A stretch of 64,000 nucleotides of DNA from Escherichia coli (GCF_030013595.1 NZ_CP122768.1), one strand, 5' to 3'. Shown: positions 7,012-60,746, counted from the stretch's first letter. Numbers and translations are program-made. Notes: a model not told the origin generated them from the sequence alone.

Positions 7012-7175
7012 CCTTATACGAACAACACCACCCCGTAGGACGGATAAGGCGTTTACGCTGCATCCGGCAACCTATGCCTGATGCGACGCTGAAGCGTCTT
7101 ATCATGCCTACATAGCACTGCCACGTATGTCGGAAAAGGCGTTTACACCGCATCCGGCATAAAAACACGCGCACT
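7012..7175. repeat. REP (repetitive extragenic palindromic) elements
   Basis: Several copies of the GCCGGATGCGGCGT / CGCCTTATCCGGC-type palindromic unit between fbaB and gatY. Confidence 0.7.
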
Positions 7176-8197: not shown

Positions 8198-9471
<1,274 letters not shown>

Positions 9472-15427: not shown

Positions 15428-15514
15428 CTTATGCATAAAAAAATAAGCCCGTGTAAGGGAGATTACACAGGCTAAGGAGGTGGTTCCTGGTACAGCTAGC
15501 ATTTTATGGGTTAT
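15428..15514 (-). ncRNA. cyaR: Hfq-dependent small RNA CyaR (RyeE)
   Basis: Minus-strand sequence GCTGAAAAACATAACCCATAAAATGCTAGCTGTACCAGGAACCACCTCCTTAGCCTGTGTAATCTCCCTTACACGGGCTTATTTTTT matches CyaR as I recall it, including the terminator hairpin and U tract. Confidence 0.8.
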
Positions 15515-15608
15515 GTTTTTCAGCGAAACGGATGATAACCTTAATAAATGCAGCTGTATGTGATCGGTTTCTAAGAATTTTCCATCCGGGAAAAATAATC
15601 GAAATTAA

Positions 15609-29599: not shown

Positions 29600-29740
29600 G
29601 CGGGACGCTGAAACGGGAAAGCCCCTCCCGAGGAAGGGGCCATAAATAAGGAAAGGGTCATGATGAAGCTACTCATCATCGTGGTGCTCTTAGTCATAAG
29701 CTTCCCCGCTTACTAAGACTACCAGGGCGGGGGAAACCCC
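29600..29740 (-). ncRNA. sibB: Sib-type antisense sRNA (antitoxin of ibsB); approximate bounds
   Basis: Established arrangement: Sib RNAs are transcribed antisense across ibs ORFs. A minus-strand hairpin plus T-rich tract lies near 29600-29640. Bounds not verifiable here. Confidence 0.35.
29660..29716 (+). CDS. ibsB: type I toxin, small hydrophobic peptide
   Basis: 18-codon ORF encoding MMKLLIIVVLLVISFPAY preceded by AAGGAAAGGG; matches the Ibs toxin family. Confidence 0.7.
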   Translation: MMKLLIIVVLLVISFPAY

Positions 29741-29929
29741 GCTCTACCCTCACTCCTGAAAGTATGCCTTCACGATAAGATTGTCAATCCGCAGGCTTTG
29801 TAGTCTGCGATCCTGCCAGCAAATATTCTTTGCGAGTCGTTACGCAATAATCACAGAGGAAACTATTTTATTCACGCGTTAGCGATAGACTGCATTCAGG
29901 GCGAAAGGAGGTAAGCCGATGATTTCAGC

Positions 29930-30070
29930 GGGACGCTGAAACGGGAAAGCCTCTCCCGGAGAAGAGGGCTTTTAATAAGGAAAGGGTTATGATGAAGCAC
30001 GTCATCATACTGGTGATACTCTTAGTGATTAGCTTCCAGGCTTACTAAGAACACCAGGGGGAGGGGGAAA
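29930..30070 (-). ncRNA. sibA: Sib-type antisense sRNA (antitoxin of ibsA); approximate bounds
   Basis: Second copy of the repeat unit; inferred by analogy with the first copy. Confidence 0.35.
29989..30048 (+). CDS. ibsA: type I toxin, small hydrophobic peptide
   Basis: 19-codon ORF encoding MMKHVIILVILLVISFQAY preceded by AAGGAAAGGG. Confidence 0.7.
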   Translation: MMKHVIILVILLVISFQAY

Positions 30071-30268
30071 CCTCTCCCTAACCCTCACTCCTGAAATTAT
30101 GTCACTCCGCCCTTAGTGTCAATCGACGGCTCTCCGTTCTTGCGAGGCGAATAGCAAAATTTTCTGCGCCGCCGGGCCTAATTCTGAAAGTTTCTTCGTT
30201 TGCTCTTATTTCATTATTGCAGTCGGTATGATACCGGACCTCGATAATTCTCTAAGAAAGGATTTCTT

Positions 30269-30928
30269 ATGAGCGAACAAATCACGTTTGCCACCAGCGA
30301 TTTTGCCAGTAACCCGGAACCACGTTGCCCCTGCATTTTGCTGCTGGATGTTTCTGGTTCTATGAACGGTAGACCTATTAATGAACTTAACGCCGGATTG
30401 GTTACCTTTCGTGATGAACTGCTTGCTGATCCGCTGGCTTTAAAAAGAGTGGAACTCGGCATTGTGACGTTCGGCCCGGTGCATGTGGAACAACCCTTTA
30501 CCAGCGCCGCTAATTTTTTTCCGCCCATCCTGTTTGCCCAGGGCGATACACCAATGGGTGCGGCCATTACCAAAGCCCTGGATATGGTAGAGGAGCGGAA
30601 ACGTGAGTATCGTGCAAATGGTATTTCGTATTATCGCCCGTGGATTTTCCTGATTACCGATGGTGCACCAACCGATGAGTGGCAGGCTGCAGCCAACAAA
30701 GTGTTTCGGGGGGAAGAAGATAAAAGGTTTGCTTTCTTTTCCATCGGTGTTCAGGGGGCGGATATGAAGACGCTGGCACAAATTAGCGTTCGTCAGCCTT
30801 TGCCTCTGCAAGGATTACAATTCCGTGAACTGTTTAGCTGGTTATCCAGTTCGCTGCGTTCGGTTTCCCGCTCCACGCCGGGAACGGAAGTTGTGCTGGA
30901 AGCGCCAAAAGGCTGGACGTCAGTGTGA
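30269..30928 (+). CDS. yegL: von Willebrand factor A (vWA) domain protein, TerY-like
   Basis: 219-aa ORF with a MIDAS motif (LLLDVSGSM ... ITDGAPTD); recognised as YegL. Confidence 0.88.
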
Positions 30929-31686
30929 GCTGGCGTCTGGTCTATGCATCAACCGTTGGAACGTCGCACATCAGCGCGGACTTGCCTTGTCAGGATGCCT
31001 GCCAGATGCAGATTGCCTGGTTAAATGACCAGCAGCCATTATTGTCGGTATTTGTCGCTGATGGCGCAGGCAGTGTCTCGCAGGGTGGCGAAGGCGCGAT
31101 GCTCGCCGTCAATGAAGCGATGGCTTATATGTCGCAAAAAGTGCAGGGCGGGGAATTGGGGCTTAATGATGTCCTCGCCACAAATATGGTACTGACCATT
31201 CGTCAACGACTTTTTGCCGAGGCGGAAGCCAAAGAATTAGCGGTTCGCGATTTTGCCTGCACATTTCTGGGACTGATTTCATCGCCTGACGGCACCTTGA
31301 TTATGCAGATTGGCGATGGCGGCGTGGTGGTAGATTTGGGTCACGGTCTGCAATTGCCTCTCACGCCGATGGCGGGTGAATATGCCAACATGACGCACTT
31401 CATTACCGACGAAGATGCCGTTTCCAGACTGGAAACTTTCACCAGCACTGGGCGTGCGCACAAAGTTGCAGCATTTACGGATGGTATCCAGCGACTGGCG
31501 TTAAATATGCTGGATAATTCTCCTCATGTGCCTTTCTTTACCCCGTTTTTCAATGGACTGGCGGCAGCAACGCAGGAACAACTCGATTTATTACCTGAAT
31601 TGTTAAAGCAGTTTTTGTCCAGCCCGGCGGTAAACGAGCGTACGGATGATGATAAAACGTTGGCACTGGCGCTGTGGGCAGAGTGA
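30925..31686 (+). CDS. pphC: PP2C-family Ser/Thr protein phosphatase
   Basis: 253-aa ORF (YegK); GTG start overlaps the yegL stop (GTGA), implying translational coupling; VADGAGS / IGDGG motifs fit a PP2C fold. Confidence 0.85.
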
Positions 31687-31750
31687 GTTTCTCATGGCGG
31701 TTGAAGACAACAATTCAACCGCCAGTTTAAACAATAAATATAACGGCTGA

Positions 31751-32212
31751 TTAGCGAACTAATTTTGCTCTTAGCTCGTCGGCTTCTTCTTTTGGATAGG
31801 TGACCAATAAAGGATCAATGGTATAACCGCCGTAAATTTTATCCCCGCGCGTATACATCCAGTCTGAAATATCTTCTTTCTTGATTTTCCACTCCTGGCC
31901 ATATTCTACGTTTGTAACAATACCAGGGTCATTGCTGATTACGCCAATAAACATGCCGTTAGAATAAGTGACATCCGTAAGCCAGAAATGCTCGGTTCTT
32001 CCGTGATCGGTTATCGGGGCTTTGACTGCGAAAGTATCGGCATCTTTTTTATTCATAACCTCGATGAATTTATCGGTTTCTTTCCGCGCATGTTTAATCG
32101 CGTCAGACATCGCTTGTTTATCATAACCTCCCGTCACTAACGTATCCGAAACTTCACTAAAGCCCGCGGTAGTAAAAAATAGCAGACTCAACATAAGTAA
32201 TATCTTTTTCAT
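31751..32212 (-). CDS. yegJ: secreted DUF-type protein of unknown function
   Basis: 153-aa ORF with an N-terminal signal peptide (MKKILLMLSLLFFTTAGFS); AT-rich relative to neighbours. Confidence 0.8.
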   Translation of the reverse strand: MKKILLMLSLLFFTTAGFSEVSDTLVTGGYDKQAMSDAIKHARKETDKFIEVMNKKDADTFAVKAPITDHGRTEHFWLTDVTYSNGMFIGVISNDPGIVTNVEYGQEWKIKKEDISDWMYTRGDKIYGGYTIDPLLVTYPKEEADELRAKLVR

Positions 32213-32411
32213 TTTTTCTCCAGAATCCCTTTGTAGTCAAAGTTAGCAAAAACCTGTGGAAGTTAATCATTATCAGGCCGAAATTGAATTGTATCCTGAT
32301 AAAATTGCATTATCATTTTTATTCTTGAGTGGGTTTTCCCCATATAGAAATAATTTTAATGGTTAGTTGTTATTATTCATTGAAATATAATATAACTACC
32401 CGCGAAATATT

Positions 32412-34358
32412 ATGAAAACAAATATAAAAGTATTTACATCGACAGGTGAATTGACCACTCTTGGCCGTGAACTGGGCAAAGGTGGTGAAGGCGCGGTTTA
32501 TGATATCGAGGAGTTTGTCGATAGCGTCGCCAAGATTTATCACACGCCGCCACCCGCCTTAAAACAGGACAAACTTGCCTTTATGGCTGCGACAGCTGAC
32601 GCGCAGTTGTTGAATTATGTCGCCTGGCCGCAGGCAACGCTTCACGGTGGACGAGGCGGAAAAGTTATCGGTTTTATGATGCCAAAAGTTTCTGGTAAAG
32701 AACCGATTCATATGATCTATAGCCCGGCACATCGTCGCCAGAGTTACCCTCATTGTGCGTGGGATTTTCTACTCTATGTTGCGCGCAATATTGCTTCATC
32801 TTTTGCTACGGTTCACGAGCACGGGCACGTCGTGGGTGACGTAAACCAGAACAGTTTTATGGTAGGTCGCGACAGCAAAGTGGTACTGATTGATAGCGAC
32901 TCCTTTCAGATTAACGCCAATGGCACACTGCATTTATGCGAAGTCGGCGTGTCGCATTTTACGCCGCCAGAGCTACAAACCTTGTCGTCATTTGTCGGCT
33001 TTGAACGCACAGAAAATCACGATAATTTTGGCCTTGCGTTGCTGATTTTTCACGTCTTGTTTGGTGGCCGGCATCCTTATTCTGGTGTGCCGCTTATCTC
33101 TGATGCGGGTAATGCGCTGGAGACGGATATTACCCATTTCCGTTATGCCTACGCGTCAGATAATCAGCGACGTGGTTTAAAACCGCCGCCACGATCGATT
33201 CCGCTATCGATGTTACCGAGTGATGTTGAAGCCATGTTTCAGCAGGCATTCACGGAAAGTGGCGTGGCAACCGGGCGTCCGACGGCTAAAGCGTGGGTAG
33301 CGGCACTTGATTCTCTGCGCCAACAGTTAAAGAAATGTCCCGTTTCGGCAATGCATGTTTATCCCGCTCATTTGACCGACTGCCCGTGGTGTGCGCTGGA
33401 TAATCAAGGCGTTATCTATTTTATTGATCTCGGCGAAGAGGTCATTACCACCAGCGGTGATTTTGTGCTGGCGAAAGTCTGGGCGATGGTGATGGCGTCA
33501 GTAGCACCGCCAGCATTGCAATTGCCATTACCCGATCATTTCCAACCGACTGGCAGGCCGCTTCCTTTAGGCCTGTTACGGCGCGAATACATCATTCTGA
33601 TTGAGATCGCACTGTCAGCGTTATCGCTGTTGCTTTGCGGCCTTCAGGCAGAACCGCGTTATATTATTTTGGTTCCTGTGCTGTCGGCTATCTGGATTAT
33701 TGGCAGTCTGACAAGCAAAGCGTACAAAGCAGAAGTTCAGCAACGCCGTGAGGCATTTAATCGCGCGAAAATGGACTATGACCATTTATTCAGCCAGATC
33801 CAACAGTTGGGCGGGCTGGAAGGTTTTATCGCCAAACGGACGATGCTCGAAAAAATGAAGGACGAAATGCTCGGGTTACCGGAAGAAGAAAAACGTGCTC
33901 TGGCAGCACTTCACGACACCGCAAGGGAACGGCAGAAGCAGAAGTTTCTGGAGGGATTTTTTATTGATGTTGCCTCTATTCCCGGCGTTGGCCCTGCGCG
34001 TAAAGCGGCGTTACGGTCCTTTGGTATTGAAACAGCAGCGGATGTTACCCGTCGTGGGGTTAAGCAAGTGAAAGGGTTTGGTGATCATCTGACCCAGGCA
34101 GTTATCGACTGGAAAGCAAGTTGCGAACGCCGTTTTGTGTTCAGGCCGAATGAAGCGGTAACGCCAGCAGACAGACAAGCGGTAATGGCGAAAATGACCG
34201 CCAAACGACATCGGCTGGAATCGACGTTGACTGTCGGCGCGACAGAGTTGCAGCGATTCCGCCTTCATGCTCCAGCACGGACCATGCCGTTGATGGAACC
34301 GTTACGTCAGGCGGCAGAAAAACTGGCTCAGGCGCAGGCAGATTTAAGCCGCTGCTGA
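32412..34358 (+). CDS. yegI: membrane-anchored atypical Ser/Thr protein kinase with C-terminal helix-hairpin-helix
   Basis: 648-aa ORF; kinase-like motifs (GKGGEGAVY, VAKIY, HGHVVGDVNQNS, DSDSF), two hydrophobic helices near residues 395-440, and an HhH (IPGVGPARKAALRSFGIETAADV). Confidence 0.85.
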   Translation: MKTNIKVFTSTGELTTLGRELGKGGEGAVYDIEEFVDSVAKIYHTPPPALKQDKLAFMAATADAQLLNYVAWPQATLHGGRGGKVIGFMMPKVSGKEPIHMIYSPAHRRQSYPHCAWDFLLYVARNIASSFATVHEHGHVVGDVNQNSFMVGRDSKVVLIDSDSFQINANGTLHLCEVGVSHFTPPELQTLSSFVGFERTENHDNFGLALLIFHVLFGGRHPYSGVPLISDAGNALETDITHFRYAYASDNQRRGLKPPPRSIPLSMLPSDVEAMFQQAFTESGVATGRPTAKAWVAALDSLRQQLKKCPVSAMHVYPAHLTDCPWCALDNQGVIYFIDLGEEVITTSGDFVLAKVWAMVMASVAPPALQLPLPDHFQPTGRPLPLGLLRREYIILIEIALSALSLLLCGLQAEPRYIILVPVLSAIWIIGSLTSKAYKAEVQQRREAFNRAKMDYDHLFSQIQQLGGLEGFIAKRTMLEKMKDEMLGLPEEEKRALAALHDTARERQKQKFLEGFFIDVASIPGVGPARKAALRSFGIETAADVTRRGVKQVKGFGDHLTQAVIDWKASCERRFVFRPNEAVTPADRQAVMAKMTAKRHRLESTLTVGATELQRFRLHAPARTMPLMEPLRQAAEKLAQAQADLSRC

Positions 34359-34370
34359 GCCAGTTTTCAA

Positions 34371-35723
34371 TTAACGAAACACCACTTCCGCCCAGCGTGC
34401 CAGCCCGGCGGTGACGGAGCCAAAGTCATCGCCGCCTGCAATCGGAATGCCCGGCAACTGTTCTGCCAGCGCTTTTTTAATCAGCGGCGAACGGGCGCTA
34501 CCGCCGGTCAGGTATATAACGTCCGGTTTTTCCTGGGCGTTATCCAGCGCCAGTTGCACCTGTTCCAGAATTCGCGCAAGCGGCTGGCTGAGGGCGCTTT
34601 CCAGCCCTTGCTGGCTAATCAGCGTAGCCAGTTCATCGCTGATAAACGGCAGTGAGGCGCGAGTTTCCGCAGTGCTGGAAAGAGCAATTTTGCTCTCTTC
34701 TGCGCTGCGTACCAGGCGATAGCTTAAACGCTGACGCCAGACTTTCTGTAACAGGGCCACTTTTTCCGGTTCGCGGGCATCGCGTACCAGATCGTTAAGC
34801 AGACGACCGTTGGCACTACTGTAGAAATCACTCTGCGCAGGAACGTCGTTGATGGCAACCGCATTCCACCACGGCAGAATCGGCAGGGCGATGCCTTTTT
34901 CGGTTTCGCCACCCATGCCCAGTAACGGCATCAGGTTTTTAAACGCCAGCGCGATATCCAGATCGTTACCGCCAATACGGCAACCACTGTGACCCAGCAG
35001 GCTGGCTTCACGATCGAGACGCGAACGCCACTGCGGCCCCATCAGCAGCAATGAACAGTCAGTCGTACCACCGCCGATATCCACCACCAGCACCCGTTTT
35101 TCTTCCTGCAAGGTGGCTTCGTAATCCAGCCCAGCCGCGACCGGCTCGTACTGGAATACCACGTCCCTGAATCCGGCACGCTTCGCCGCGCGTTCCAGAA
35201 TCCCTTGCGCCTGGGCGTTTGCTTCATCGCCGCCAAGCCCCTGGAAGTTGATCGGGCGACCAATCACTGCCTGAGTAATTGCCTCCGGCAGTTGAGCCTG
35301 CGCCTGTTGGCGAATGTGCAACATCATTGCGCAGACCAGATCCTCAAACAGCGCTACCTGCTGCGGTTTTAAGCCGCTGGCACCGAGGAACGATTTTGGT
35401 GATTTCACAAACCACACTTCTTCTGGATCATCAATGTACTGTGCCAGTGAGGAAAGACCGAACTGCACGCTTTTCGCCGTAACATCGATATCTTCTTCGC
35501 GGTTATAACGAATCGCCCGACGCAACAGCGCCTGCGTTTCATCGTCGTCTGCCGGAACATCATGATGGCGGTACAGCCATTCGCTTACCGCTTCACGCGT
35601 TGGCGCGCAAAGCATTGAAGGCAGCAGCGTGCTGTCGTTTTCCATTTTTAGCAAGTGCGGTTTACCGTCACGCATGACCGCCACTGAACAGTTTGCTGTA
35701 CCGTAATCAAAACCAATAAACAC
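34371..35723 (-). CDS. yegD: Hsp70/actin-fold ATPase (DnaK-like chaperone homologue)
   Basis: 450 aa from the GTG at 35723 (VFIGFDYGTANCSVAV..., Hsp70 phosphate-1 motif; VVDIGGGTTDCSLL phosphate-2); the ORF track extends 21 codons upstream without an SD. Confidence 0.82.
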   Translation of the reverse strand: MFIGFDYGTANCSVAVMRDGKPHLLKMENDSTLLPSMLCAPTREAVSEWLYRHHDVPADDDETQALLRRAIRYNREEDIDVTAKSVQFGLSSLAQYIDDPEEVWFVKSPKSFLGASGLKPQQVALFEDLVCAMMLHIRQQAQAQLPEAITQAVIGRPINFQGLGGDEANAQAQGILERAAKRAGFRDVVFQYEPVAAGLDYEATLQEEKRVLVVDIGGGTTDCSLLLMGPQWRSRLDREASLLGHSGCRIGGNDLDIALAFKNLMPLLGMGGETEKGIALPILPWWNAVAINDVPAQSDFYSSANGRLLNDLVRDAREPEKVALLQKVWRQRLSYRLVRSAEESKIALSSTAETRASLPFISDELATLISQQGLESALSQPLARILEQVQLALDNAQEKPDVIYLTGGSARSPLIKKALAEQLPGIPIAGGDDFGSVTAGLARWAEVVFR

Positions 35724-35856
35724 GAAATAATCCCCATGCCGGTGAAGAAGGGGCGTGACTTTAGCGAAATGTTGCCGTCGCGACAACCGGAATATGAAAG
35801 CAAAGCGTAGCGTCTGAATAACGTTTATGCTGAAAGCGGATTAACAAGGAGATGCG

Positions 35857-36705
35857 ATGTATACCCTGAACTGGCAGCCGCCGTATGACTGGTCGTGGAT
35901 GTTGGGATTTCTCGCCGCCCGTGCAGTGAGTGGTGTGGAAACGGTCGCGGACAGTTATTATGCCCGTAGTCTGGCGGTGGGCGAATATCGCGGCGTGGTG
36001 ACTGCTATTCCGGATATAGCCCGCCATACTCTGCACATAAATTTAAGTGCAGGTTTAGAACCCGTTGCCGCTGAGTGTCTGGCGAAAATGAGCCGCCTGC
36101 TTGATCTGCAATGTAACCCGCAGATTGTTAACGGTGCGTTGGGCAAGTTAGGCGCGGCGCGGCCCGGATTGCGTTTACCCGGCAGTGTTGATGCTTTTGA
36201 GCAGGGCGTGCGGGCGATTTTAGGCCAACTGGTGAGCGTGGCGATGGCGGCAAAATTGACCGCCAGAGTGGCACAGCTTTATGGCGAACGGCTGGATGAT
36301 TTTCCGGAGTATATCTGCTTCCCCACGCCTCAGCGGCTGGCAGCAGCCGACCCGCAGGCATTAAAAGCGTTAGGCATGCCGTTGAAACGGGCAGAGGCAC
36401 TGATTCATCTGGCAAATGTGGCGCTGGAGGGCAGCTTACCAATGACAATTCCGGGCGATGTGGAGCAGGCGATGAAAACGCTGCAAACTTTTCCGGGTAT
36501 CGGGCGCTGGACGGCGAATTATTTCGCTTTGCGTGGCTGGCAGGCGAAAGATGTTTTCCTGCCGGATGATTATCTGATTAAACAGCGATTTCCGGGAATG
36601 ACACCAGCACAAATCCGCCGTTATGCCGAACGCTGGAAGCCCTGGCGCTCTTATGCGCTGTTGCATATCTGGTATACGGAAGGCTGGCAACCAGACGAAG
36701 CATGA
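35857..36705 (+). CDS. alkA: 3-methyladenine DNA glycosylase II
   Basis: 282-aa ORF (MYTLNWQPPYDWSWMLGFLAARAVS...) recognised as AlkA. Confidence 0.92.
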   Translation: MYTLNWQPPYDWSWMLGFLAARAVSGVETVADSYYARSLAVGEYRGVVTAIPDIARHTLHINLSAGLEPVAAECLAKMSRLLDLQCNPQIVNGALGKLGAARPGLRLPGSVDAFEQGVRAILGQLVSVAMAAKLTARVAQLYGERLDDFPEYICFPTPQRLAAADPQALKALGMPLKRAEALIHLANVALEGSLPMTIPGDVEQAMKTLQTFPGIGRWTANYFALRGWQAKDVFLPDDYLIKQRFPGMTPAQIRRYAERWKPWRSYALLHIWYTEGWQPDEA

Positions 36706-36709
36706 CGTT

Positions 36710-36815
36710 GGTCGCCGGATGCGGTGCGAGCGCCTTATCCGGCCTGGAGAATGAGCGATTTGTAGATTTGTAGGCCTGATAAGACGCGTTAGCGTCGCAT
36801 CAGGCAATGGGCAAA
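36710..36815. repeat. REP elements
   Basis: GCCGGATGCGGTG...GCCTTATCCGGCC and GTAGGCCTGATAAGACGCG...CGTCGCATCAGGC palindromic units in the convergent alkA/dgcE gap. Confidence 0.7.
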
Positions 36816-36822
36816 CGCTCCC

Positions 36823-39800
36823 TCAGTTAATCGCGAAATAACTACTATTCACCAGCAAATCCAGCGGTTGGGCATCGGCAATCACATCACCATAAATCAG
36901 ATCGACGCCGATGCCCGAAAGCGTATCCATCACTAAGGGTAAAACGACTGGCCCGGCTATAGTCTTCACCCCGAGTCGCTGAGCGTGCCCCAGAATAATC
37001 GTAATCAGCATCTCATCCATCAAATTACCCTGCACGTTGGCGCATAAATCCCCATCAAGTAGCAGGTAATCTGCCATATTCGCTTTCAGCGAGTTGAAGA
37101 TTTGCAGATCGCGGCCCACCTGGCTGAGCACTATCCGACATCCCGCCAGCCGCAGTTTTTGCACGCTTTCTGCGTGATCTAAAATCGCTTCTGCCGGAAT
37201 AACCAGATGTAATAACCGTGGTGGTAGAGGGCTATTTTCCATCTGCTCAAGCAGGTCATTCACCAGCGTGGCGCTACTCAAACCGGCAACGGAAAGGGGG
37301 AGGGCGATGCTTATGCCTTTACTGGCAACCGCTTTGGCAGCCTGCTGGAAAAATTCGTGGAATACCCGTCGGTCAAGAGCATGGCTAAGTGCCGGATCGC
37401 TGCAGCTACGACGAAATGTTTGTTCATCAATAATCTCGCCTTCGCAACTCCACAGCTTAAGTGAAATCAGCCACAAATTACGCGCTTCCGGGATCCGTGG
37501 CGAAGCGACACCGTGGGCGATCATCATCAACTGATTCTCTTTAATCATCCGCCACTGTTCATCAAGCGACATCGCCGCCTGTTCGCTATGTGCGGCAGCT
37601 TGCTGCGGTTCGTAAATCGTCACCCGGCCCCGGCCACCATTTTTGGAGGCATAACAGGCGATATCAGCCTGCGACATCACTTCAGCCGCCTGATGATTGT
37701 TGTCATCAATCAAGGTAATCCCGGCACTGGCACCTACCCGATGTACACGTCCTTCCCAGATAAAGTGATAGTCATTCACAGCACTGATAATACGTGTAGC
37801 GATAAAACGCGCACTTTCGACATTGCAGTCTGGCAGCAGCAGACCAAATTCATCACCGCCGAGCCGCGCCAGCACGTCGCTGGAGCGCAGCATGCTCAGC
37901 ATCAACGACGCCAGTTCGCGCAGTAAAGCGTCGCCCGCCGCATGCCCGGCGCTGTCATTCACCGCTTTAAAGCGATCAAGATCGATAAACACCAGGGCAT
38001 GTCGCTGATGCGTACTGTTTACCGTTTGCAGCAGGATGCGTAGTTGCTTCTCAAAACTGGCGCGATTGGCGAGATGCGTCAGTGCATCATGGGAGGCGCT
38101 GTAGCTCAGCTGGCGCAGCATTTTGCGTGATTCGGTGACGTCCTGAATCACCAGAACCGAACCAATATTGCTGCCGTCCAGAGTACTTAACGGCGTAATA
38201 CTGTAATGCACGTCGTAGCTGCCGCCGCTCCGGCAGTGCAACACCACATCTTGTTCAATCGCGGAACGTGAGGTGTCGGCACTGTAAATGTTTTCCATTA
38301 ATGGTCCGTTGTCGCCAAAAGTAATATGCAACACCGTCAGGAGCGGAACACCTAATGCTTCTTCCTGCGTCCAGCCGCTCATCTTCTCCGCCACTGGATT
38401 CATAAAGGTAATTTTCATTGCCATATCAATACAGACCACGGCTTCGCCGATGGAGTCCAGCGTAATGTGCAGGCGCTCTTTTTCCTGAAACAATGCCTCG
38501 TTAAGCTGTTTAACCTCGGTCATATCCATATTAATGCCGAGCAGGCGTTCGACTTCGCCTTCTTTATTCAGTACCCGGTTGGCGAGGGCGCGGATATGGC
38601 GGATGCCATCTTTCACGGCAATGCGAAATTCCAGCTTAAAGGGCGAGCGTGATTGCAACGAATCACGAATCACTTTTTCGGCATGCTGGCGATCTTCCGG
38701 CAGCACGCACTCGTACCACACCTGCCAGTTCGGTTTGATATGCGGAGGAATTTCATACAGCTCGAACATCCGCTTATCCCAGCTAAAAATATTCGGCTTC
38801 AGCTCCCACTCCCAGATGCCAATCCCGCCCGCTTCGTTAGCCAGCGTGATGCGTTCCATCAGTTGCTGATTCACCTGTTCGGTGCGTTTTAGCTCGTTAA
38901 TGTCTTCAATCTGAGCGATAAAATAGAGCGGCGTGCCATCCGTGTGGCGCACCAGTGAGACGGCAAGCAACGCCCAGACAACATCGCCATTGCGGTTGTA
39001 GTAACGTTTTTCCATTGAATAGGTGTTTATTTCACCGCTTATCAGCTTTTCAACCTGTTGGAGATCTTTATTGAGATCCTCCGGCCAGGTCAGTTGCTGA
39101 AAGGTGAGTCCGCGCAGCTCTTCCTGACTGTAACCGAGAAACTGGCAGAGTGCTTTGTTGGATTGCAGCCATTGTCCCTCGGTGCCCACTAATGCCATGC
39201 CGATGGCGGAATATTCCATGGCGTTCCGAAAGCGGGTTTCGCTTTCGGAAATGTGTTTGCGTTCCGCACGAAAGGCATACATCACCATGGTCATGATGTT
39301 GGCGGGCAGCAGGATCAGCAAAAACGGTAGCCACGGCATATGGCTCGTCAGGTACGTACGCGGCGTAGCAAGCAGGGAGGGATCCGCGGCCATCATCAGC
39401 GACACCATCATTACCGTGGTAAGGAAGATCAAAAAGGCTTCCATTCGTGGCAGGCGCACGGCGCTCCACATCAACAGCACAATAATGAAAGTAAAAGGCC
39501 ACGGCAGATACAGCATCGAAAGCCAGCTTAACGTCAGTGTGATGGCTAACGTGAGCAGCGACTCAAAAAGCAACCGTGGGTTGCGATGGCGCAGCAGATA
39601 GTGTGGTTTAAATAACAATCCCAGCGGCACCAGTGCCAGAGCGCCGATGGATTCTGACAGTACCCATATCAAAAATGCCCTGAGAGGATCGTCTCCGGGC
39701 GTCAGCAGGACAACCAGAACACCCCCCAACAGAGGTGGAACAATGGCGCTGCCGAGTGCCAGACGCAGCCAGTCAGCCAGATTTTGCAAGGGGTTATACC

Positions 39801-40140
39801 ACGGCAGCAATTTACGTAGCAGCACTGCCCCGACCACGGCTTCAACAATATTGATGGTCGTCCAGGTCATGTTCAGCGAGCTGGTGGAAAAAAGCAGGAT
39901 GGATGCGGCGATATTTCCCAGCGAACAGCTCAGCGCAATTCCCGGCCACATGCGCCCGGCATGGCGATAAAACGCCACCATCATGATGGACGTCGGGAAC
40001 CACAGTGGGGCGAGTTGGGTGCCAAACTGCGAAAGCTCAAGCGAGAAAAGGGTAAAGATAAACGAGACTAAACCTAAACTGACCAGGTGAAGCAGCGGGT
40101 GGGGCAGGGCAATTAATACATGCTGTGATTGTTTGCTCAT
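36823..40140 (-). CDS. dgcE: multidomain diguanylate cyclase (MASE1-PAS-GGDEF with degenerate EAL)
   Basis: 1105-aa ORF with an N-terminal polytopic region, PAS repeats, an intact GGDEF motif (LARLGGDEFGLLL) and a C-terminal EAL-like region lacking the EAL motif. Confidence 0.9.
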   Translation of the reverse strand: MSKQSQHVLIALPHPLLHLVSLGLVSFIFTLFSLELSQFGTQLAPLWFPTSIMMVAFYRHAGRMWPGIALSCSLGNIAASILLFSTSSLNMTWTTINIVEAVVGAVLLRKLLPWYNPLQNLADWLRLALGSAIVPPLLGGVLVVLLTPGDDPLRAFLIWVLSESIGALALVPLGLLFKPHYLLRHRNPRLLFESLLTLAITLTLSWLSMLYLPWPFTFIIVLLMWSAVRLPRMEAFLIFLTTVMMVSLMMAADPSLLATPRTYLTSHMPWLPFLLILLPANIMTMVMYAFRAERKHISESETRFRNAMEYSAIGMALVGTEGQWLQSNKALCQFLGYSQEELRGLTFQQLTWPEDLNKDLQQVEKLISGEINTYSMEKRYYNRNGDVVWALLAVSLVRHTDGTPLYFIAQIEDINELKRTEQVNQQLMERITLANEAGGIGIWEWELKPNIFSWDKRMFELYEIPPHIKPNWQVWYECVLPEDRQHAEKVIRDSLQSRSPFKLEFRIAVKDGIRHIRALANRVLNKEGEVERLLGINMDMTEVKQLNEALFQEKERLHITLDSIGEAVVCIDMAMKITFMNPVAEKMSGWTQEEALGVPLLTVLHITFGDNGPLMENIYSADTSRSAIEQDVVLHCRSGGSYDVHYSITPLSTLDGSNIGSVLVIQDVTESRKMLRQLSYSASHDALTHLANRASFEKQLRILLQTVNSTHQRHALVFIDLDRFKAVNDSAGHAAGDALLRELASLMLSMLRSSDVLARLGGDEFGLLLPDCNVESARFIATRIISAVNDYHFIWEGRVHRVGASAGITLIDDNNHQAAEVMSQADIACYASKNGGRGRVTIYEPQQAAAHSEQAAMSLDEQWRMIKENQLMMIAHGVASPRIPEARNLWLISLKLWSCEGEIIDEQTFRRSCSDPALSHALDRRVFHEFFQQAAKAVASKGISIALPLSVAGLSSATLVNDLLEQMENSPLPPRLLHLVIPAEAILDHAESVQKLRLAGCRIVLSQVGRDLQIFNSLKANMADYLLLDGDLCANVQGNLMDEMLITIILGHAQRLGVKTIAGPVVLPLVMDTLSGIGVDLIYGDVIADAQPLDLLVNSSYFAIN

Positions 40141-40457
40141 TACCGCTTTATCCGCAAGACCTGGTCGCCAGTATTCGTTTCTGTGTTTATGCTAGTACAA
40201 AAGTTTTACATTTTATATGCGAATTGCTCATAAAGTGACGTAAAGGCGGATAATTTGCGCAACTGCGTATAACATTTTTTACCTTACATAAAACTGATCA
40301 ACGTAATTTGCCCCCGGGAATTCTTTGTCAACAATTAACTCTGAGCGCGCGGCAACGCTATTCGACTGGTATCAGACGGATGAAATCCCTATAATTGCCG
40401 CGTTTGGCGCTTCGTCGCCCCCTTCCTAACATCCAGGTTAATCAGGTCGCTAAATAT

Positions 40458-41099
40458 ATGACTGATCAGTCTCATCAGTGCGTCATTATCGGTATCGCTG
40501 GCGCATCGGCTTCCGGCAAGAGTCTTATTGCCAGTACCCTTTATCGTGAATTGCGTGAGCAAGTCGGTGATGAACACATCGGCGTAATTCCCGAAGACTG
40601 CTATTACAAAGATCAAAGCCATCTGTCGATGGAAGAACGCGTTAAGACCAACTACGACCATCCCAGCGCGATGGATCACAGTCTGCTGCTTGAGCATTTA
40701 CAAGCGTTGAAACGCGGCTCGGCAATTGACCTGCCGGTTTACAGCTATGTTGAACATACGCGTATGAAAGAAACGGTGACGGTTGAGCCGAAGAAGGTCA
40801 TCATTCTCGAAGGCATTTTGTTGCTGACGGATGCGCGTTTGCGTGACGAACTTAACTTCTCCATTTTCGTTGATACCCCGCTGGATATCTGCCTGATGCG
40901 CCGCATCAAGCGTGACGTTAACGAGCGTGGGCGTTCAATGGATTCAGTGATGGCGCAATATCAAAAAACCGTGCGCCCGATGTTCCTGCAATTCATTGAG
41001 CCTTCTAAACAATATGCGGACATTATCGTGCCGCGCGGCGGGAAAAACCGCATCGCGATCGATATATTGAAAGCGAAAATAAGTCAGTTCTTTGAATAA
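40458..41099 (+). CDS. udk: uridine/cytidine kinase
   Basis: ORF track starts at a TTG (40395); the internal ATG gives 213 aa ([26 protein letters not shown]-loop). Confidence 0.9.
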
Positions 41100-41190
41100 G
41101 CTTGATAAATTGTGTACCGTTCAGTGATAACCTGGTATGCCCTTGACGTAATTGGCGTTAAGGGAGTGATGCGCGAAAGGAGAAAATGCC

Positions 41191-41772
41191 ATGCGTCTGT
41201 GTGACCGAGATATTGAAGCCTGGCTTGATGAAGGCCGTTTGTCGATCAACCCACGTCCGCCAGTGGAGCGTATTAACGGCGCGACGGTGGATGTACGCCT
41301 GGGCAATAAATTTCGTACCTTCCGTGGTCACACGGCAGCGTTTATCGATCTGAGCGGTCCCAAAGATGAAGTGAGCGCCGCGCTTGACCGCGTGATGAGC
41401 GATGAGATCGTTCTCGACGAGGGCGAGGCGTTCTATCTTCACCCAGGAGAGCTGGCGCTGGCGGTGACGCTGGAGTCGGTGACGCTGCCAGCCGATCTGG
41501 TGGGCTGGCTGGACGGGCGTTCCTCACTGGCGCGTCTGGGGCTGATGGTGCACGTCACCGCGCACCGCATCGATCCGGGCTGGTCTGGTTGCATTGTGCT
41601 GGAGTTCTACAACTCCGGTAAGCTGCCGCTGGCGCTGCGTCCGGGCATGTTAATTGGTGCGCTGAGCTTTGAGCCGCTTTCCGGCCCGGCGGCGCGACCT
41701 TACAACCGCCGTGAAGATGCGAAATATCGCAACCAGCAGGGCGCGGTAGCCAGCCGAATCGATAAAGACTAA
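41191..41772 (+). CDS. dcd: dCTP deaminase
   Basis: 193-aa ORF ([23 protein letters not shown]...) recognised as Dcd. Confidence 0.92.
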
Positions 41773-41793
41773 TTCAGGCCCATTGAGGATACC

Positions 41794-43647
41794 ATGAGAC
41801 GATTTCTGACGACGCTGATGATACTCCTGGTCGTGCTGGTGGCCGGGTTATCTGCGTTAGTGTTGCTGGTGAATCCGAATGATTTCCGCGACTATATGGT
41901 CAAGCAAGTTGCTGCACGTAGCGGTTATCAATTGCAGCTCGACGGGCCACTGCGTTGGCACGTCTGGCCGCAGCTTAGTATCCTCTCCGGGCGAATGTCT
42001 CTCACCGCCCAGGGCGCAAGCCAGCCACTGGTTCGCGCCGACAACATGCGTCTGGACGTGGCGCTTTTACCACTACTGAGTCATCAACTGAGCGTTAAGC
42101 AGGTGATGCTAAAAGGGGCAGTGATCCAACTGACGCCGCAGACGGAAGCGGTGCGCAGTGAAGACGCTCCGGTTGCACCGCGCGACAATACCTTGCCGGA
42201 TCTGTCAGACGATCGCGGATGGTCGTTTGATATATCCAGTCTTAAGGTGGCGGACAGCGTGCTGGTGTTCCAGCATGAAGATGACGAGCAGGTGACAATC
42301 CGCAATATTCGCCTGCAAATGGAACAAGATCCCCAACATCGTGGTTCATTTGAGTTCTCCGGGCGGGTTAATCGCGATCAGCGCGATCTCACGATATCCC
42401 TTAACGGTACGGTAGATGCTTCTGATTATCCGCATGATTTAACGGCGGCTATTGAACAAATTAACTGGCAGTTGCAGGGTGCCGATTTACCAAAACAAGG
42501 TATTCAGGGGCAGGGGAGTTTCCAGGCCCAGTGGCAGGAGTCACATAAACGCCTTTCATTTAACCAAATTAGTTTGACCGCCAATGATAGTACGCTAAGC
42601 GGGCAAGCACAGGTTACGCTGACAGAGAAACCGGAATGGCAGCTGAGGCTGCAATTCCCGCAACTGAATCTTGACAACCTCATCCCGCTTAATGAAACCG
42701 CGAATGGTGAAAACGGTGCCGCGCAGCAGGGGCAGAGCCAATCAACGTTGCCGCGCCCGGTCATTTCTTCGCGTATTGATGAACCGGCCTATCAGGGACT
42801 GCAAGGCTTTACGGCTGATATTTTGTTGCAGGCCAGTAACGTGCGCTGGCGCGGAATGAATTTTACAGATGTTGCCACGCAAATGACCAACAAGTCGGGT
42901 TTGCTGGAAATTACTCAACTGCAGGGCAAACTTAACGGTGGACAGGTTTCACTGCCGGGCACGCTGGACGCGACATCAATAAATCCGCGGATAAACTTCC
43001 AGCCACGGCTGGAAAACGTTGAGATTGGTACCATTCTGAAGGCGTTTAACTATCCGATTTCGTTGACCGGAAAAATGTCACTGGCTGGTGATTTCTCCGG
43101 TGCTGACATAGATGCCGACGCATTCCGCCACAACTGGCAAGGACAGGCACATGTCGAAATGACCGACACGCGCATGGAAGGGATGAACTTCCAGCAGATG
43201 ATTCAGCAAGCGGTAGAGCGTAATGGCGGTGATGTGAAGGCCGCTGAAAACTTTGATAACGTGACGCGGCTTGACCGCTTTACCACCGATTTGACGTTGA
43301 AGGATGGCGTCGTGACGTTAAACGACATGCAAGGTCAATCGCCTGTGCTGGCGCTGACAGGGGAAGGCATGTTGAATCTGGCAGATCAAACCTGCGACAC
43401 CCAGTTTGATATTCGGGTCGTGGGTGGCTGGAACGGGGAAAGCAAACTGATTGATTTCCTGAAAGAAACGCCAGTACCGCTGCGGGTTTATGGCAACTGG
43501 CAGCAACTCAATTACAGCCTGCAAGTGGATCAGTTACTGCGCAAACATCTACAGGACGAAGCGAAACGTCGCCTGAATGACTGGGCCGAGCGGAATAAAG
43601 ATTCCCGTAATGGCAAAGATGTGAAGAAGTTGCTTGAGAAGATGTAG
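41794..43647 (+). CDS. asmA: AsmA-family outer-membrane biogenesis protein
   Basis: 617-aa ORF with an N-terminal TM anchor (LTTLMILLVVLVAGLSALVLLV); recognised as AsmA. Confidence 0.9.
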   Translation: MRRFLTTLMILLVVLVAGLSALVLLVNPNDFRDYMVKQVAARSGYQLQLDGPLRWHVWPQLSILSGRMSLTAQGASQPLVRADNMRLDVALLPLLSHQLSVKQVMLKGAVIQLTPQTEAVRSEDAPVAPRDNTLPDLSDDRGWSFDISSLKVADSVLVFQHEDDEQVTIRNIRLQMEQDPQHRGSFEFSGRVNRDQRDLTISLNGTVDASDYPHDLTAAIEQINWQLQGADLPKQGIQGQGSFQAQWQESHKRLSFNQISLTANDSTLSGQAQVTLTEKPEWQLRLQFPQLNLDNLIPLNETANGENGAAQQGQSQSTLPRPVISSRIDEPAYQGLQGFTADILLQASNVRWRGMNFTDVATQMTNKSGLLEITQLQGKLNGGQVSLPGTLDATSINPRINFQPRLENVEIGTILKAFNYPISLTGKMSLAGDFSGADIDADAFRHNWQGQAHVEMTDTRMEGMNFQQMIQQAVERNGGDVKAAENFDNVTRLDRFTTDLTLKDGVVTLNDMQGQSPVLALTGEGMLNLADQTCDTQFDIRVVGGWNGESKLIDFLKETPVPLRVYGNWQQLNYSLQVDQLLRKHLQDEAKRRLNDWAERNKDSRNGKDVKKLLEKM

Positions 43648-43939: not shown

Positions 43940-45523
43940 TCACACCTCGTACTCCATCTCGCCATCCTTACGCAGCGGTATAATCTGCACCTTCTGCACG
44001 CGATGGCTTTCTACCTGCAACGTTTTAAGCAAATAATCCCCCACCTGAACTTCTTCGCCAGGTTTTGGAATACGCTGCAAATACTCCATCAACAGCCCGG
44101 CAATGGTGTGATATTCACGTTTTTCATCCAGCGGCAGCGGCACATATTGCACCAGATCCTCCAGCGGCATATGACCATTCGCCGTCCAGGAACCGTCCGC
44201 ATTCTTCTGAATATCATGGCGGGCGTCGATCTCTTCCACTTCGTTCGGTAAGTTACCGGCAATGGTTTCAGTGACGTCACTTAATGTCACAATCCCTTCC
44301 ACCGAGCCAAACTCATCCACCACAAAAGCAAAGTGCGTGCGGGCATTACGGAACTGCTCCAGGGCAGGTAACAACGGCAAGGTTTCCGGGAACACCAGCG
44401 GCTGGCGAATCAACACCCGCAGGTTGAGCGGTTCGCCGCGCAGAGACTGTTGTAGCAGGTCGATAACGTGAACAACACCGAGCAAATCTTCTGCGTCATC
44501 ACCGTCGGTAACCACCAGCCGCGTATGCTGATTTCGCTCCAGCAACTGGTGGATCTCGTCTTCCGGCGCGTTGAGATCGATATGCTCAATATCGTGGCGC
44601 GACGTCATAATGCTGCTGACGGTACGCTGGTTAAGATTTAGTACCCGCTCAATCATCCGCCGTTCCTGCGGATTAAAGATCTGCTGGTTACCATGATCCA
44701 CCAGCATGGACGCGGTTTCGGCGTCCAGTTCCGCATCTTCTTTTTGCCCGCTAAGCAGGCGCATTACCGCTTCGGTAGTCCGCTGGCGCAGCGTCTGGTT
44801 AGCGGAAAGAAAACGTCGCCGGTTAAAGATAGCCAACTGATTGAGCGCCTCGATCATCACCGAGAAACCAATGGCAGCGTACAGGTAGCCTTTCGGAATG
44901 ACGAAGCCGAAACCTTCTGCCACCAGGCTAAAGCCAATCATCAACAGGAAGCTTAAGCAGAGAATAACGATCGTCGGGTGACTGTTAACAAATTGCGTTA
45001 ACGGCTTGCTGGCCATCAACATCAGGCTGATAGCGATAACCACGGCGGCCATCATGACCAGTAAATGGTCGACCATCCCGACGGCGGTAATCACTGAGTC
45101 GAGTGAGAAAATGGCGTCCAGTACCACAATTTGCGTCACCACGCCCCAGAACTTCGCACCTTTGCGTTGTGTGGGATTATTGCTGTCTTTCCCTTCCAGC
45201 CGTTCGTTCAGCTCCATCGTGGCTTTGAACAACAGGAAGAAACCACCAAACAGCATGATTAAGTCGCGGGCACTAAAGGTAAACGAGCGGAAGCTGAACA
45301 GCGGTTGAGTCAGGGTGACCAGCCAGGAGATTGACGCCAGCAGTAACAGGCGCATTAACATTGCCAGCAGCAGCCCGGTAACCCGTGCGCGGTCACGCTG
45401 CTTCGGCGGTAGTTTTTCGGCGAGGATGGCAATAAAGACCAGGTTATCAATGCCGAGGACCAGTTCGATCACAATCAGCGTGATTAACCCGGCCCAGATA
45501 GACGGATCGGCAATCCATTCCAT
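43940..45523 (-). CDS. yegH: TerC-family integral membrane protein with C-terminal CBS/CorC domains (UPF0053)
   Basis: 527 aa from the ATG at 45523 ([32 protein letters not shown]...); the ORF track extends 22 codons further upstream. Confidence 0.85.
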
Positions 45524-45991
45524 AGTAAGTACAAAACCTATTCGTTGTATGACAAATGTCACAATTCGATCATGGATAAATCGGGGCAAAAATGCAATGT
45601 TGCAGCACTATTTATCTCATATTATTTGAGGGTAATAACCTCACATTATCCCTGAATTAAAAGTGGTAATAATAAAACATTATTTAAGAAATATCGCATG
45701 TGGAGGCGCAATATTAAATATTGTCAACCTAAAGAAACTCCTAAAAACCATATTGAATGACACTTAATATAATTCTTAAAAATAGCCAATTGCCGAATTG
45801 TTACCTTGCCTGCTATTCCGTTAGCTGTAACACTTCCTCCTGCATTATTGGAGAGCCAATATTCAATTACCATAATGTCACCTTATATTCGGAAGTTAAT
45901 TTCCGCAATAACCCTTTCTCATCAACGATTGTATGCTGAGAGGGTGTGAAAAATTAAGCTAAATCAGTGTATTGGTAGCTAAAAAGCCAGG

Positions 45992-46003
45992 GGCGGTAGC
46001 GTG
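45992..46003 (+). promoter_or_regulatory. ops element (RfaH-dependent antitermination signal, within JUMPstart)
   Basis: Exact GGCGGTAGCGTG about 180 nt upstream of the wza start. Confidence 0.65.
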
Positions 46004-60380: not shown

Positions 60381-60656
<276 letters not shown>

Positions 60657-60746
60657 AATGAATGCGAAACCGCGGTGTAAATAATGACAAAAACAAAATT
60701 GGCCGTTTCGGTCAGGGCCAACTATTGCCTGAAAAAGGGTAACGAC

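Follow-up and report, generated by a model that had tools for sequence, protein, structure and literature searches.

The TerC-family gene yegH and the TerY-P-like yegL-pphC-yegI triad of Escherichia coli are probably unrelated neighbours

Introduction

On the chromosome of Escherichia coli, yegH, a gene coding for a TerC-family integral membrane protein, is found close to yegL, pphC and yegI, a set of three genes reminiscent of the TerY-P triads. TerC and TerY-P alike owe their names to tellurite-resistance loci, and the question raised by this arrangement is whether two Ter-associated modules share a neighbourhood for a functional reason or by coincidence. Both units have been annotated and partly characterised before (bioRxiv 10.1101/819920, 10.1101/303594; PMC12421838). 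Here we examine the link between them, starting from a window of 64,000 nucleotides (the whole stretch of DNA analysed, GCF_030013595.1 NZ_CP122768.1; coordinates count from its first letter).

Gene Order and Spacing of yegH and the Triad

The segment 43940-45523 is identical (100%) to yegH, annotated as 'TerC family protein', and the window is E. coli chromosome. The genes that concern us are the following:

30269..30928, plus strand: yegL, TerY-like vWA protein, first gene of the triad (Pfam VWA; similarity to TerY)
30925..31686, plus strand: pphC (yegK), PP2C phosphatase, overlapping yegL by 4 nt (Pfam PP2C_2, E 5.7e-52; annotation)
31751..32212, minus strand: yegJ (DUF2314), an insertion between pphC and yegI that varies among strains (Pfam DUF2314; annotation)
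32412..34358, plus strand: yegI, Ser/Thr kinase of a divergent Hanks type, with a weak helix-hairpin-helix match at the C terminus (annotation; weak matches to kinase models)
34371..43647, mixed strands: the intervening genes yegD (minus), alkA (plus), dgcE (minus), udk (plus), dcd (plus) and asmA (plus) (annotation)
43940..45523, minus strand: yegH coding sequence, inner-membrane protein of 527 aa with a TerC domain, a CBS pair and a CorC_HlyC domain (100% megablast match, clean translation, Pfam)

The yegH frame is uninterrupted and the gene is an ordinary one, annotated before. Its longest mechanical open reading frame extends to a TTG at 45589; the annotated start is the ATG at 45523, and the alignment of distant homologues begins at residue 1 of the annotated protein. 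The gap between the yegI stop and the 3' end of yegH measures 9,581 bp (9.6 kb), and 15,255 bp separate the starts of yegL and yegH. An earlier, sequence-only reading of this DNA had placed yegH about 10 kb from the triad, both modules within one 15-kb neighbourhood and unrelated housekeeping genes between them, and was accurate in all three respects; the fusion of a TerC domain to CBS/CorC that it described is equally borne out by Pfam and annotation.

The six intervening genes lie on mixed strands, which excludes co-transcription of the triad with yegH. Selection might still maintain the proximity if the modules cooperated in Escherichia, either with the metal-binding vWA protein YegL and the membrane kinase YegI sensing a cation handled by YegH or with YegI and PphC regulating the cytosolic CBS/CorC part of YegH by phosphorylation. 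If the TerC-family genes of the E. coli genome number about four, as we presume, the chance that a given locus in a genome of 4.7 Mb has one of them no more than 15 kb away is, by our own rough estimate, 2-3%, a value low enough to lend such cooperation some appeal. In the same sense, YegI has been described as an integral membrane protein (bioRxiv 10.1101/819920), and a role as switches that sense metal and operate by phosphorylation has been hypothesised for TerY-P triads (so put in the part of PMC11090510 that cites Anantharaman 2012). Both units are also near-universal in E. coli, with yegH present in 5420 and the triad region in 5416 of the 5426 complete genomes; since both are core, however, profiling within the species speaks neither for nor against a link. 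Against cooperation stand the six genes of mixed orientation, together with the comparative evidence set out below.

The Triad Genes

Aligned with a TerY of the IncHI2 ter locus (pSA26-MCR-1), YegL shows 32% identity (E 1e-27) and is a true TerY homologue. For YegI, no Pfam Pkinase match was obtained at E<=0.01 and no sequence match in the PDB; weak matches were found to the kinase-containing models PD-T4-6 (1.4e-4) and LanL (3.4e-6), and the C-terminal HHH_5 match falls under the Pfam cut-off. Kinase activity of YegI has been demonstrated biochemically (bioRxiv 10.1101/819920). At E<=0.01, YegL, PphC and YegJ had no match among the PADLOC families; YegI received weak kinase hits only, and YegH has no model match. 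The yegJ insertion, already described (bioRxiv 10.1101/819920), is absent from other Escherichia species and from all the foreign triads considered below, and O157-type strains show approximately 81% query coverage at the triad/yegJ region. The triad is uninterrupted in its O157 and REL606 forms.

Distribution across Enterobacteriaceae

The history of the two units was compared through AlkA, whose gene lies in the middle of the interval. A search of species-representative genomes provided 61 AlkA loci, with 10-kb flanks that cover both ends, and 14 proteins of the window were run against them by tblastn; the triad counts thus cover the region around alkA in each species. The gene order mdtA-yegD-alkA-dgcE-udk-dcd-asmA-yegH is kept across some 15 genera, including Citrobacter, Enterobacter, Klebsiella, Raoultella, Kosakonia, Lelliottia, Phytobacter, Pseudocitrobacter, Yokenella, Silvania and Huaxiibacter, with mdtA or dgcE missing at some loci, notably in Klebsiella, Raoultella and several Enterobacter. 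We take yegH to be an ancient gene, passed on vertically, of a conserved block that runs from mdtA to wza. The triad behaves otherwise. yegL, pphC and yegI were found at 3 of the 45 loci with full yegD and yegH, all three in Escherichia, and the remaining 42 are without it. Phylogenetic profiling of yegH against the triad had been proposed in the earlier reading as a check of the link, with a lack of correlated presence counting against it; in the alkA region no correlated presence is seen.

A nucleotide comparison of the mdtA-yegD interval provides additional clues on how the triad came and went. In Citrobacter, Enterobacter and most other genera compared, the sib/ibs region runs straight to the stop codon of yegD. 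In E. albertii, the sequence passes from about 53 nt of the yegL 5' end directly into about 70 nt from the 3' end of yegI, a junction that we read from its sequence as a clean deletion scar of the triad, and yegH is retained at 98% identity. The triad probably entered this site in the Escherichia lineage, with the mdtA-proximal sib/ibs repeats on one side of it and the end of yegD on the other, and was later lost in E. albertii. A C-terminal remnant of YegI beside yegD in Intestinirhabdus alba (residues 579-644, 58% identity, E 2e-9) suggests, alternatively, that the triad may predate the divergence of Escherichia at this site and have been lost repeatedly, so that its co-residence with yegH would not be very recent. 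On either history the triad came and went while yegH stayed in place.

Triad Loci outside Escherichia

YegI is at least 89% identical within Escherichia, and homologues with 57-63% identity occur in Klebsiella spallanzanii, K. aerogenes, Piscinibacter, Chromobacterium and many metagenome contigs. Eight such foreign triad loci keep the compact vWA-PP2C-kinase order. The K. spallanzanii and K. aerogenes triads have their upstream flank in common; the flanks of the remaining foreign loci all differ. Neighbours at these loci are type I RM, GmrSD, SymE and BrnA genes in K. spallanzanii, BrxR, JetB, SNase, a ScoMcrA-like gene and MazG in Piscinibacter, AbiH, a KAP NTPase and a Tn7-like TnsA/TnsB/TniB/TniQ set in Chromobacterium, and type I RM with Mrr on one metagenome contig. 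More distant homologues (approximately 40% YegI identity) are carried by plasmid pQBR103 and by a conjugative Cupriavidus plasmid. The triad is, in effect, a mobile cassette of TerY-P type that is complete in itself (vWA, PP2C and kinase) and spreads horizontally, with a putative role in defence or stress signalling.

By tblastn, neither a YegH-type nor a canonical TerC lies within 10 kb of any of the eight foreign triads, and triad genes were not found near the YegH homologues of Ralstonia, Deinococcus and Novosphingobium. K. spallanzanii SB6411 does possess both units, but on separate contigs: contig 5 carries the triad and contig 23 the yegD...yegH block. These observations count heavily against cooperation between YegH and the triad: in the alkA region the two do not co-occur outside Escherichia, no TerC lies within 10 kb of any of the eight foreign triads, E. 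albertii has kept a nearly unchanged yegH after losing its triad, and a shared phenotype of yegH and yegLKI has not been reported in the literature (PMC12421838; bioRxiv 10.1101/819920). We thus regard cooperation as very improbable.

In our assessment yegH and yegL-pphC-yegI are very probably separate units that have different histories and stand 10 kb apart in E. coli by coincidence. The suspicion that two Ter-associated modules stand together for a reason is not borne out, with 42 of 45 yegH loci lacking the triad and eight of eight foreign triads lacking a TerC gene within 10 kb, and the caveat with which it had been offered, that the arrangement may be coincidence, is in our view right, a mobile cassette having been inserted into a conserved housekeeping block.

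TerC Subfamilies and the Ter Names

The names of the two modules call for separate consideration. The TerC protein of the ter operon (IncHI2) scores 360 bits with the NCBIfam Alx/TerC model TIGR03718, whereas YegH has no match to this model at E<=1e-3; its membrane domain matches the YkoY (82 bits) and YjbE (80 bits) models only, in both cases below their cut-offs. In a direct BLASTP comparison with TerC of the IncHI2 ter locus (pSA26-MCR-1), YegH gave E 0.02, and the similarity is confined to the 'E..L..DN' motif. In a tblastn search of 72,556 plasmids, the YegH TerC domain matched 265 records and YegL 2331 (those examined for YegL, at three places per record, being vWA/TerY-type genes), a disparity indicating that TerC genes of ter plasmids are evidently missed by the YegH query at E<=1e-3. 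The TerC domain of YegH thus belongs not to the ter-operon (Alx/TerC) subfamily but to another.

One might nevertheless view the neighbourhood as what decay has left of an ancestral ter (tellurite-resistance) island, with a TerC-like gene and a TerY-like module as the sole survivors. YegL is after all a genuine TerY homologue by the comparison above, and canonical ter loci hold terC and several terY within about 12 kb. But YegH falls outside the Alx/TerC subfamily and has a CBS/CorC module that ter-operon TerC lacks; terZ, terA, terB, terD, terE and ter-linked biosynthetic genes are absent from the interval; genera in which the triad never appears conserve the yegH side of the block; and neither a PP2C nor a kinase gene is present in the canonical ter locus that was examined. 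The content of the ter locus and the subfamily of YegH lead us to reject this island scenario, which is effectively refuted.

The shared Ter name, on which the suspected link had leaned, says less than it seems to: YegL is a member of the TerY family, but YegH lies outside the TerC subfamily of the ter operon, and the ter locus examined has neither of the other two triad components. The common prefix reflects one operon of origin for the names and not a documented partnership of TerC with TerY-P. With YegH in another TerC subfamily and the triad a mobile cassette, the names TerC and TerY are unfit as evidence of association.

Domain Architecture and Proposed Function of YegH

Three domains can be delimited in YegH:

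44915..45484, minus strand: TerC membrane domain, residues 14-203 (Pfam PF03741, conserved columns, AlphaFold model)
44249..44626, minus strand: CBS-pair (Bateman) domain of CNNM/CorC type, approximately residues 300-425 (two Pfam CBS matches, PDB sequence matches, Foldseek)
43976..44206, minus strand: CorC_HlyC 'transporter-associated' domain, residues 440-516 (Pfam PF03471, E 4.5e-22; PDB 2o3g, 2oai, 4hg0)

The TerC profile is matched with E 2.4e-49 and 167.9 bits (cut-off 27.8) over profile positions 1-177 of 178, and the two CBS stretches with a Pfam E of 9.7e-15. In PDB sequence searches the cytosolic half matches the E. coli CorC structure 4hg0 (E 1.3e-27), and the CBS pair also matches the Mg-ATP-bound CBS pairs of Thermus CorC and archaeal MtCorB; residues 249-513 match the PaeA model (E 1.8e-46). 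The cytosolic module is, from these matches, homologous to those of CorC, CorB and PaeA, and nucleotide binding by YegH is predicted. The AlphaFold model of the full-length protein (pLDDT 80) finds PDB structures through its CBS/CorC part only, and Foldseek aligns it with Mg-ATP- or AMP-bound CBS pairs at TM 0.75-0.90.

The membrane half (residues 1-245), modelled together with 38 YgdQ-like sequences, consists of seven long helices with pLDDT 90. Against the PDB (copy of April 2026) the TerC-domain model retrieved nothing at E<=0.001 (best E 0.15; best TM approximately 0.39, to unrelated transporters), and so no solved TerC fold is available as a guide. The domain contains two repeat motifs, with E20 and D26 in ELVLGIDN and D136, S140 and D142 in LDAIFSLDS. 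In an alignment of 39 sequences (A2), E20, D26 and D142 are invariant and D136 and S140 at least 90% conserved; K100, E104 and Q131 are nearly invariant across the alignments of the YegH family, which comprises 1211 clusters (50% identity) at E<=1e-30. The acidic residues of the two motifs follow the pattern expected of the metal site of TerC proteins, here a putative one.

With these features YegH is most likely an inner-membrane exporter of divalent cations, of Mg2+/Mn2+ type, and published work on TerC proteins and MgpA also favours a role in cation handling. The seven-helix TerC domain, of the LysE superfamily, would form the metal path with its two acidic repeat motifs, and the cytosolic CBS pair and CorC_HlyC domain of CNNM/CorC type would sense Mg-ATP or cation load and gate export, as proposed for its paralogue MgpA. 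We lean slightly towards this view of a divalent-cation exporter gated through Mg-ATP or cation sensing by the CBS/CorC module, with the choice of ion and the mode of gating as its conjectural parts.

The yegH Upstream Region and PhoB

If the triad is not the partner of yegH, its conserved neighbours and its regulators are the next place to look. An alignment of the 330 nt upstream of yegH from 45 Enterobacteriaceae loci contains one strongly conserved block, and two published PhoB sites coincide exactly with it:

45545..45574, plus strand: published PhoB sites, located upstream of yegH at 22-51 nt from its start codon (sequences identical to those given in PMC3465305 and PMC10294691)

The sites are TTGTATGACAAATGTCAC, from ChIP and gel shift (PMC3465305), and TGTCACAATTCGATCATG, from ChIP (PMC10294691). 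Upstream of yegH, Rfam models gave no riboswitch or other RNA element at gathering score or E<=1, the sole hit being the JUMPstart element of wza, and a yybP-ykoY leader is absent at the same limit (E<=1). Consensus promoter and terminator scans around yegH gave no excess over shuffled sequence. The only candidate for a YoaL-like leader peptide upstream is a 4-codon frame, ATG-ATC-GAA-TTG-TGA, which lies in the conserved block and overlaps the PhoB site.

During phosphate starvation, metal-dependent phosphatases are exported in bulk. In this context, the real partners of yegH could be asmA and wza, with their part in envelope biogenesis, or PhoB and the response to phosphate starvation, with YegH supplying metal to periplasmic or envelope enzymes in the manner of the Bacillus subtilis proteins MeeF and MeeY. 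Several observations are in agreement with such a role: wza follows yegH, giving the order asmA-yegH-wza, at 27 of the 41 species loci outside Escherichia in which yegH is seen; two ChIP studies and a gel shift place PhoB at 22-51 nt before the gene, on its best-conserved upstream block; full-length YegH homologues in Ralstonia and Novosphingobium are found near genes for acid phosphatase, metallophosphoesterase, UppP and DedA; and the TerC proteins of B. subtilis metalate exoenzymes (PMC10550928). On the other side, yegH is monocistronic and, as annotated, convergent with asmA and divergent from wza, so that it is co-transcribed with neither. The expression data conflict as well, since a reporter went up, a microarray gave -0.92 and RNA-seq of a phoB mutant was unchanged (2,257 vs 2,498) (PMC3465305, PMC10294691), and the contexts of yegH in distant taxa are few and heterogeneous. 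We therefore consider this set of partners an unlikely one. The more specific version, which we draw from the conserved PhoB site and a few gene neighbourhoods, would make YegH the Enterobacteriaceae counterpart of MeeF/MeeY, a Mg-ATP-gated TerC exporter that gives Mg2+, Mn2+ or Zn2+ to periplasmic enzymes and is tied through PhoB to phosphate starvation; it is likewise doubtful, and we offer it as speculation.

Comparison with Known Systems

On the reading we prefer, that of two independent units, the proximity of yegH to the triad carries no functional information. What the comparison provides instead is a history of the triad at this site: it entered between sib/ibs and yegD, was later lost from E. 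albertii and was interrupted by yegJ. The more useful question is which cation YegH moves and why a PhoB site is conserved at its promoter, and the relationship of both units to characterised systems helps to frame it.

The closest counterpart of yegL-pphC-yegI is the TerY-P triad (Anantharaman et al. 2012; antiphage TerY-P, Gao et al. 2020), which has the same trio of TerY-like vWA protein, PP2C phosphatase and Ser/Thr kinase in compact order. As with TerY-P, relatives of the E. coli triad are found amid restriction and defence genes and on plasmids (PMC11090510). The kinases differ in their additional parts, since that of TerY-P has an OB fold or zinc ribbon and YegI a membrane segment (bioRxiv 10.1101/819920) plus the weak helix-hairpin-helix. 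Furthermore, the PADLOC models for antiphage TerY-P do not match YegL or PphC, and the triad of the window, unlike its compact relatives, is interrupted by yegJ.

With the TerC of the ter operon, YegH has in common Pfam PF03741 and acidic motifs of the 'E..L..DN' type. The former is, however, a protein of 346 aa without CBS/CorC, encoded amid terZABDE, while YegH has the CBS/CorC module and its gene is flanked by asmA and wza; TerB, TerD and TerZ genes are absent from the annotated 41 kb. Nearer to YegH, judging from NCBIfam, are the YkoY and YjbE subfamilies. The B. subtilis proteins MeeF (YceF), MeeY (YkoY) and YjbE, as well as E. coli YgdQ, are short TerC proteins without the CBS/CorC module found in YegH, whose membrane domain shares 42-50% identity with YgdQ-like proteins (alignment A2). 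Several short TerC genes are under the yybP-ykoY Mn riboswitch, and the yegH upstream region is without one. In B. subtilis, TerC proteins export Mn besides metalating exoenzymes, and tellurite transport by TerC proteins is unsupported by evidence (PMC10550928).

The cytosolic part of YegH connects it with a different group, the CNNM/CorB/CorC/PaeA transporters, which possess a homologous CBS pair and CorC_HlyC domain but in which the membrane domain is DUF21/CNNM, where that of YegH is TerC. Both halves are combined in MgpA (YoaE) of Salmonella and E. coli, a TerC-CBS-CorC_HlyC protein like YegH, for which the same logic of a transporter coupled to a cytosolic sensor of cation or Mg-ATP has been proposed, and which guards Salmonella against excess Mg2+ (PMC12421838). 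MgpA is nevertheless a separate paralogue. Deletion of yegH in Salmonella had no phenotype in Mg and cation-stress tests where deletion of mgpA had one (PMC12421838), and mgpA is preceded by the YoaL leader peptide, in whose place yegH has a PhoB site.

Origin and composition of the triad locus

Remnants of the yegL-pphC-yegI triad (vWA, PP2C and kinase proteins; window 30269-34358) are present in two of the comparison loci. In E. albertii (comparison locus L005, locus positions 8374-8594) all that is left is the 5' end of yegL (approximately 53 nt) joined to the 3' end of yegI (approximately 70 nt), the mark of a clean deletion of the triad. Since a C-terminal YegI remnant (66 aa at 58% identity) adjoins yegD in Intestinirhabdus alba (L023, 8285-8482), there is a hint that the triad occupied its present site before the divergence of Escherichia. 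The left edge of the insertion is marked by two repeats lying between mdtA and yegL:

29645-29787, minus strand, SIB RNA / ibs toxin repeat
29974-30122, minus strand, SIB RNA / ibs toxin repeat

The copy number is apparently one in E. whittamii and Escherichia sp. MOD1-EC7003 (L003 and L059), and a sib-like sequence is likewise retained at the mdtA-side site in Citrobacter.

Within the triad, pphC and yegI are separated (gap 31687-32411) by an inserted gene:

31751-32212, minus strand, yegJ (DUF2314)

This insertion is already known (bioRxiv 10.1101/819920). The gene is missing in other Escherichia species and in all the homologous triads compared from outside the genus, and O157-type E. coli apparently lacks it as well (triad query coverage 81%). 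Across distant triads (L063-L071, compared with window 30269-34358) the identity of YegL, at 75-86%, is far above that of PphC (60-65%) and YegI (59-62%), suggesting that constraint within the triad is strongest on the vWA protein.

The conserved block

The mdtA-yegD-alkA-dgcE-udk-dcd-asmA-yegH block is conserved across Enterobacteriaceae. The alkA-udk interval is devoid of dgcE in Intestinirhabdus, Klebsiella, Raoultella and some "Enterobacter" (L023, L038, L042-L045, L062), and thus the block has a lineage-specific gene loss or gain of its own. Two public assemblies are probably contaminated or mislabelled: L029, labelled Chryseobacterium sp. 18061, carries the full mdtB...yegH block with typical Enterobacteriaceae sequence, and a 449-nt record of Terrisporobacter mayombei (L060) holds an alkA fragment identical to E. 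coli.

Regulatory and RNA elements

Upstream of yegH (43940-45523, minus strand) and toward the divergent wza, we note:

45545-45574, plus strand, two published PhoB ChIP sites (PMC3465305, PMC10294691), 22-51 nt 5' of the yegH start codon
45724-45873, minus strand, RefSeq "hypothetical protein" of 49 aa

The PhoB sites coincide exactly with the best-conserved yegH upstream block among the 45 Enterobacteriaceae loci compared; published data on the effect of PhoB on yegH expression are conflicting. Part of the 49-aa frame coincides with a TAAGAATTATATTAAG-like stretch of moderate conservation, possibly the RcsAB box in the promoter of wza, and the frame is therefore probably not a real gene. 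Further RNA elements of the window were identified as Rfam matches, including three naRNA4 elements in all:

7038-7108, plus strand, naRNA4 (REP-type)
15441-15526, minus strand, CyaR sRNA
45965-46003, plus strand, JUMPstart element in the wza leader
60448-60606, minus strand, naRNA4 (REP-type)
60693-60742, plus strand, algC RNA motif upstream of cpsG

The YegH architecture and its relatives

The TerC membrane domain of YegH (residues 1-245) yields a confident predicted model (m268b2517c13a, pLDDT 90). A comparison with the PDB chains available through April 2026 gave no structural match at E<=0.001, and the TerC fold therefore appears to be without an experimental structure. In Ralstonia and Novosphingobium (L072, L074), genes for acid phosphatase, metallophosphoesterase, UppP and DedA lie near full-length homologues of YegH. 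A TerC-only gene adjoins a CorA Mg2+ transporter gene in Microvirga (L080, 7001-8717). In Deinococcus pMP1 (L073, 11980-15814) a TerC-only gene precedes a pair of "hemolysin family" genes of the CNNM-type CBS-CorC kind, an arrangement resembling the YegH architecture divided among separate genes.
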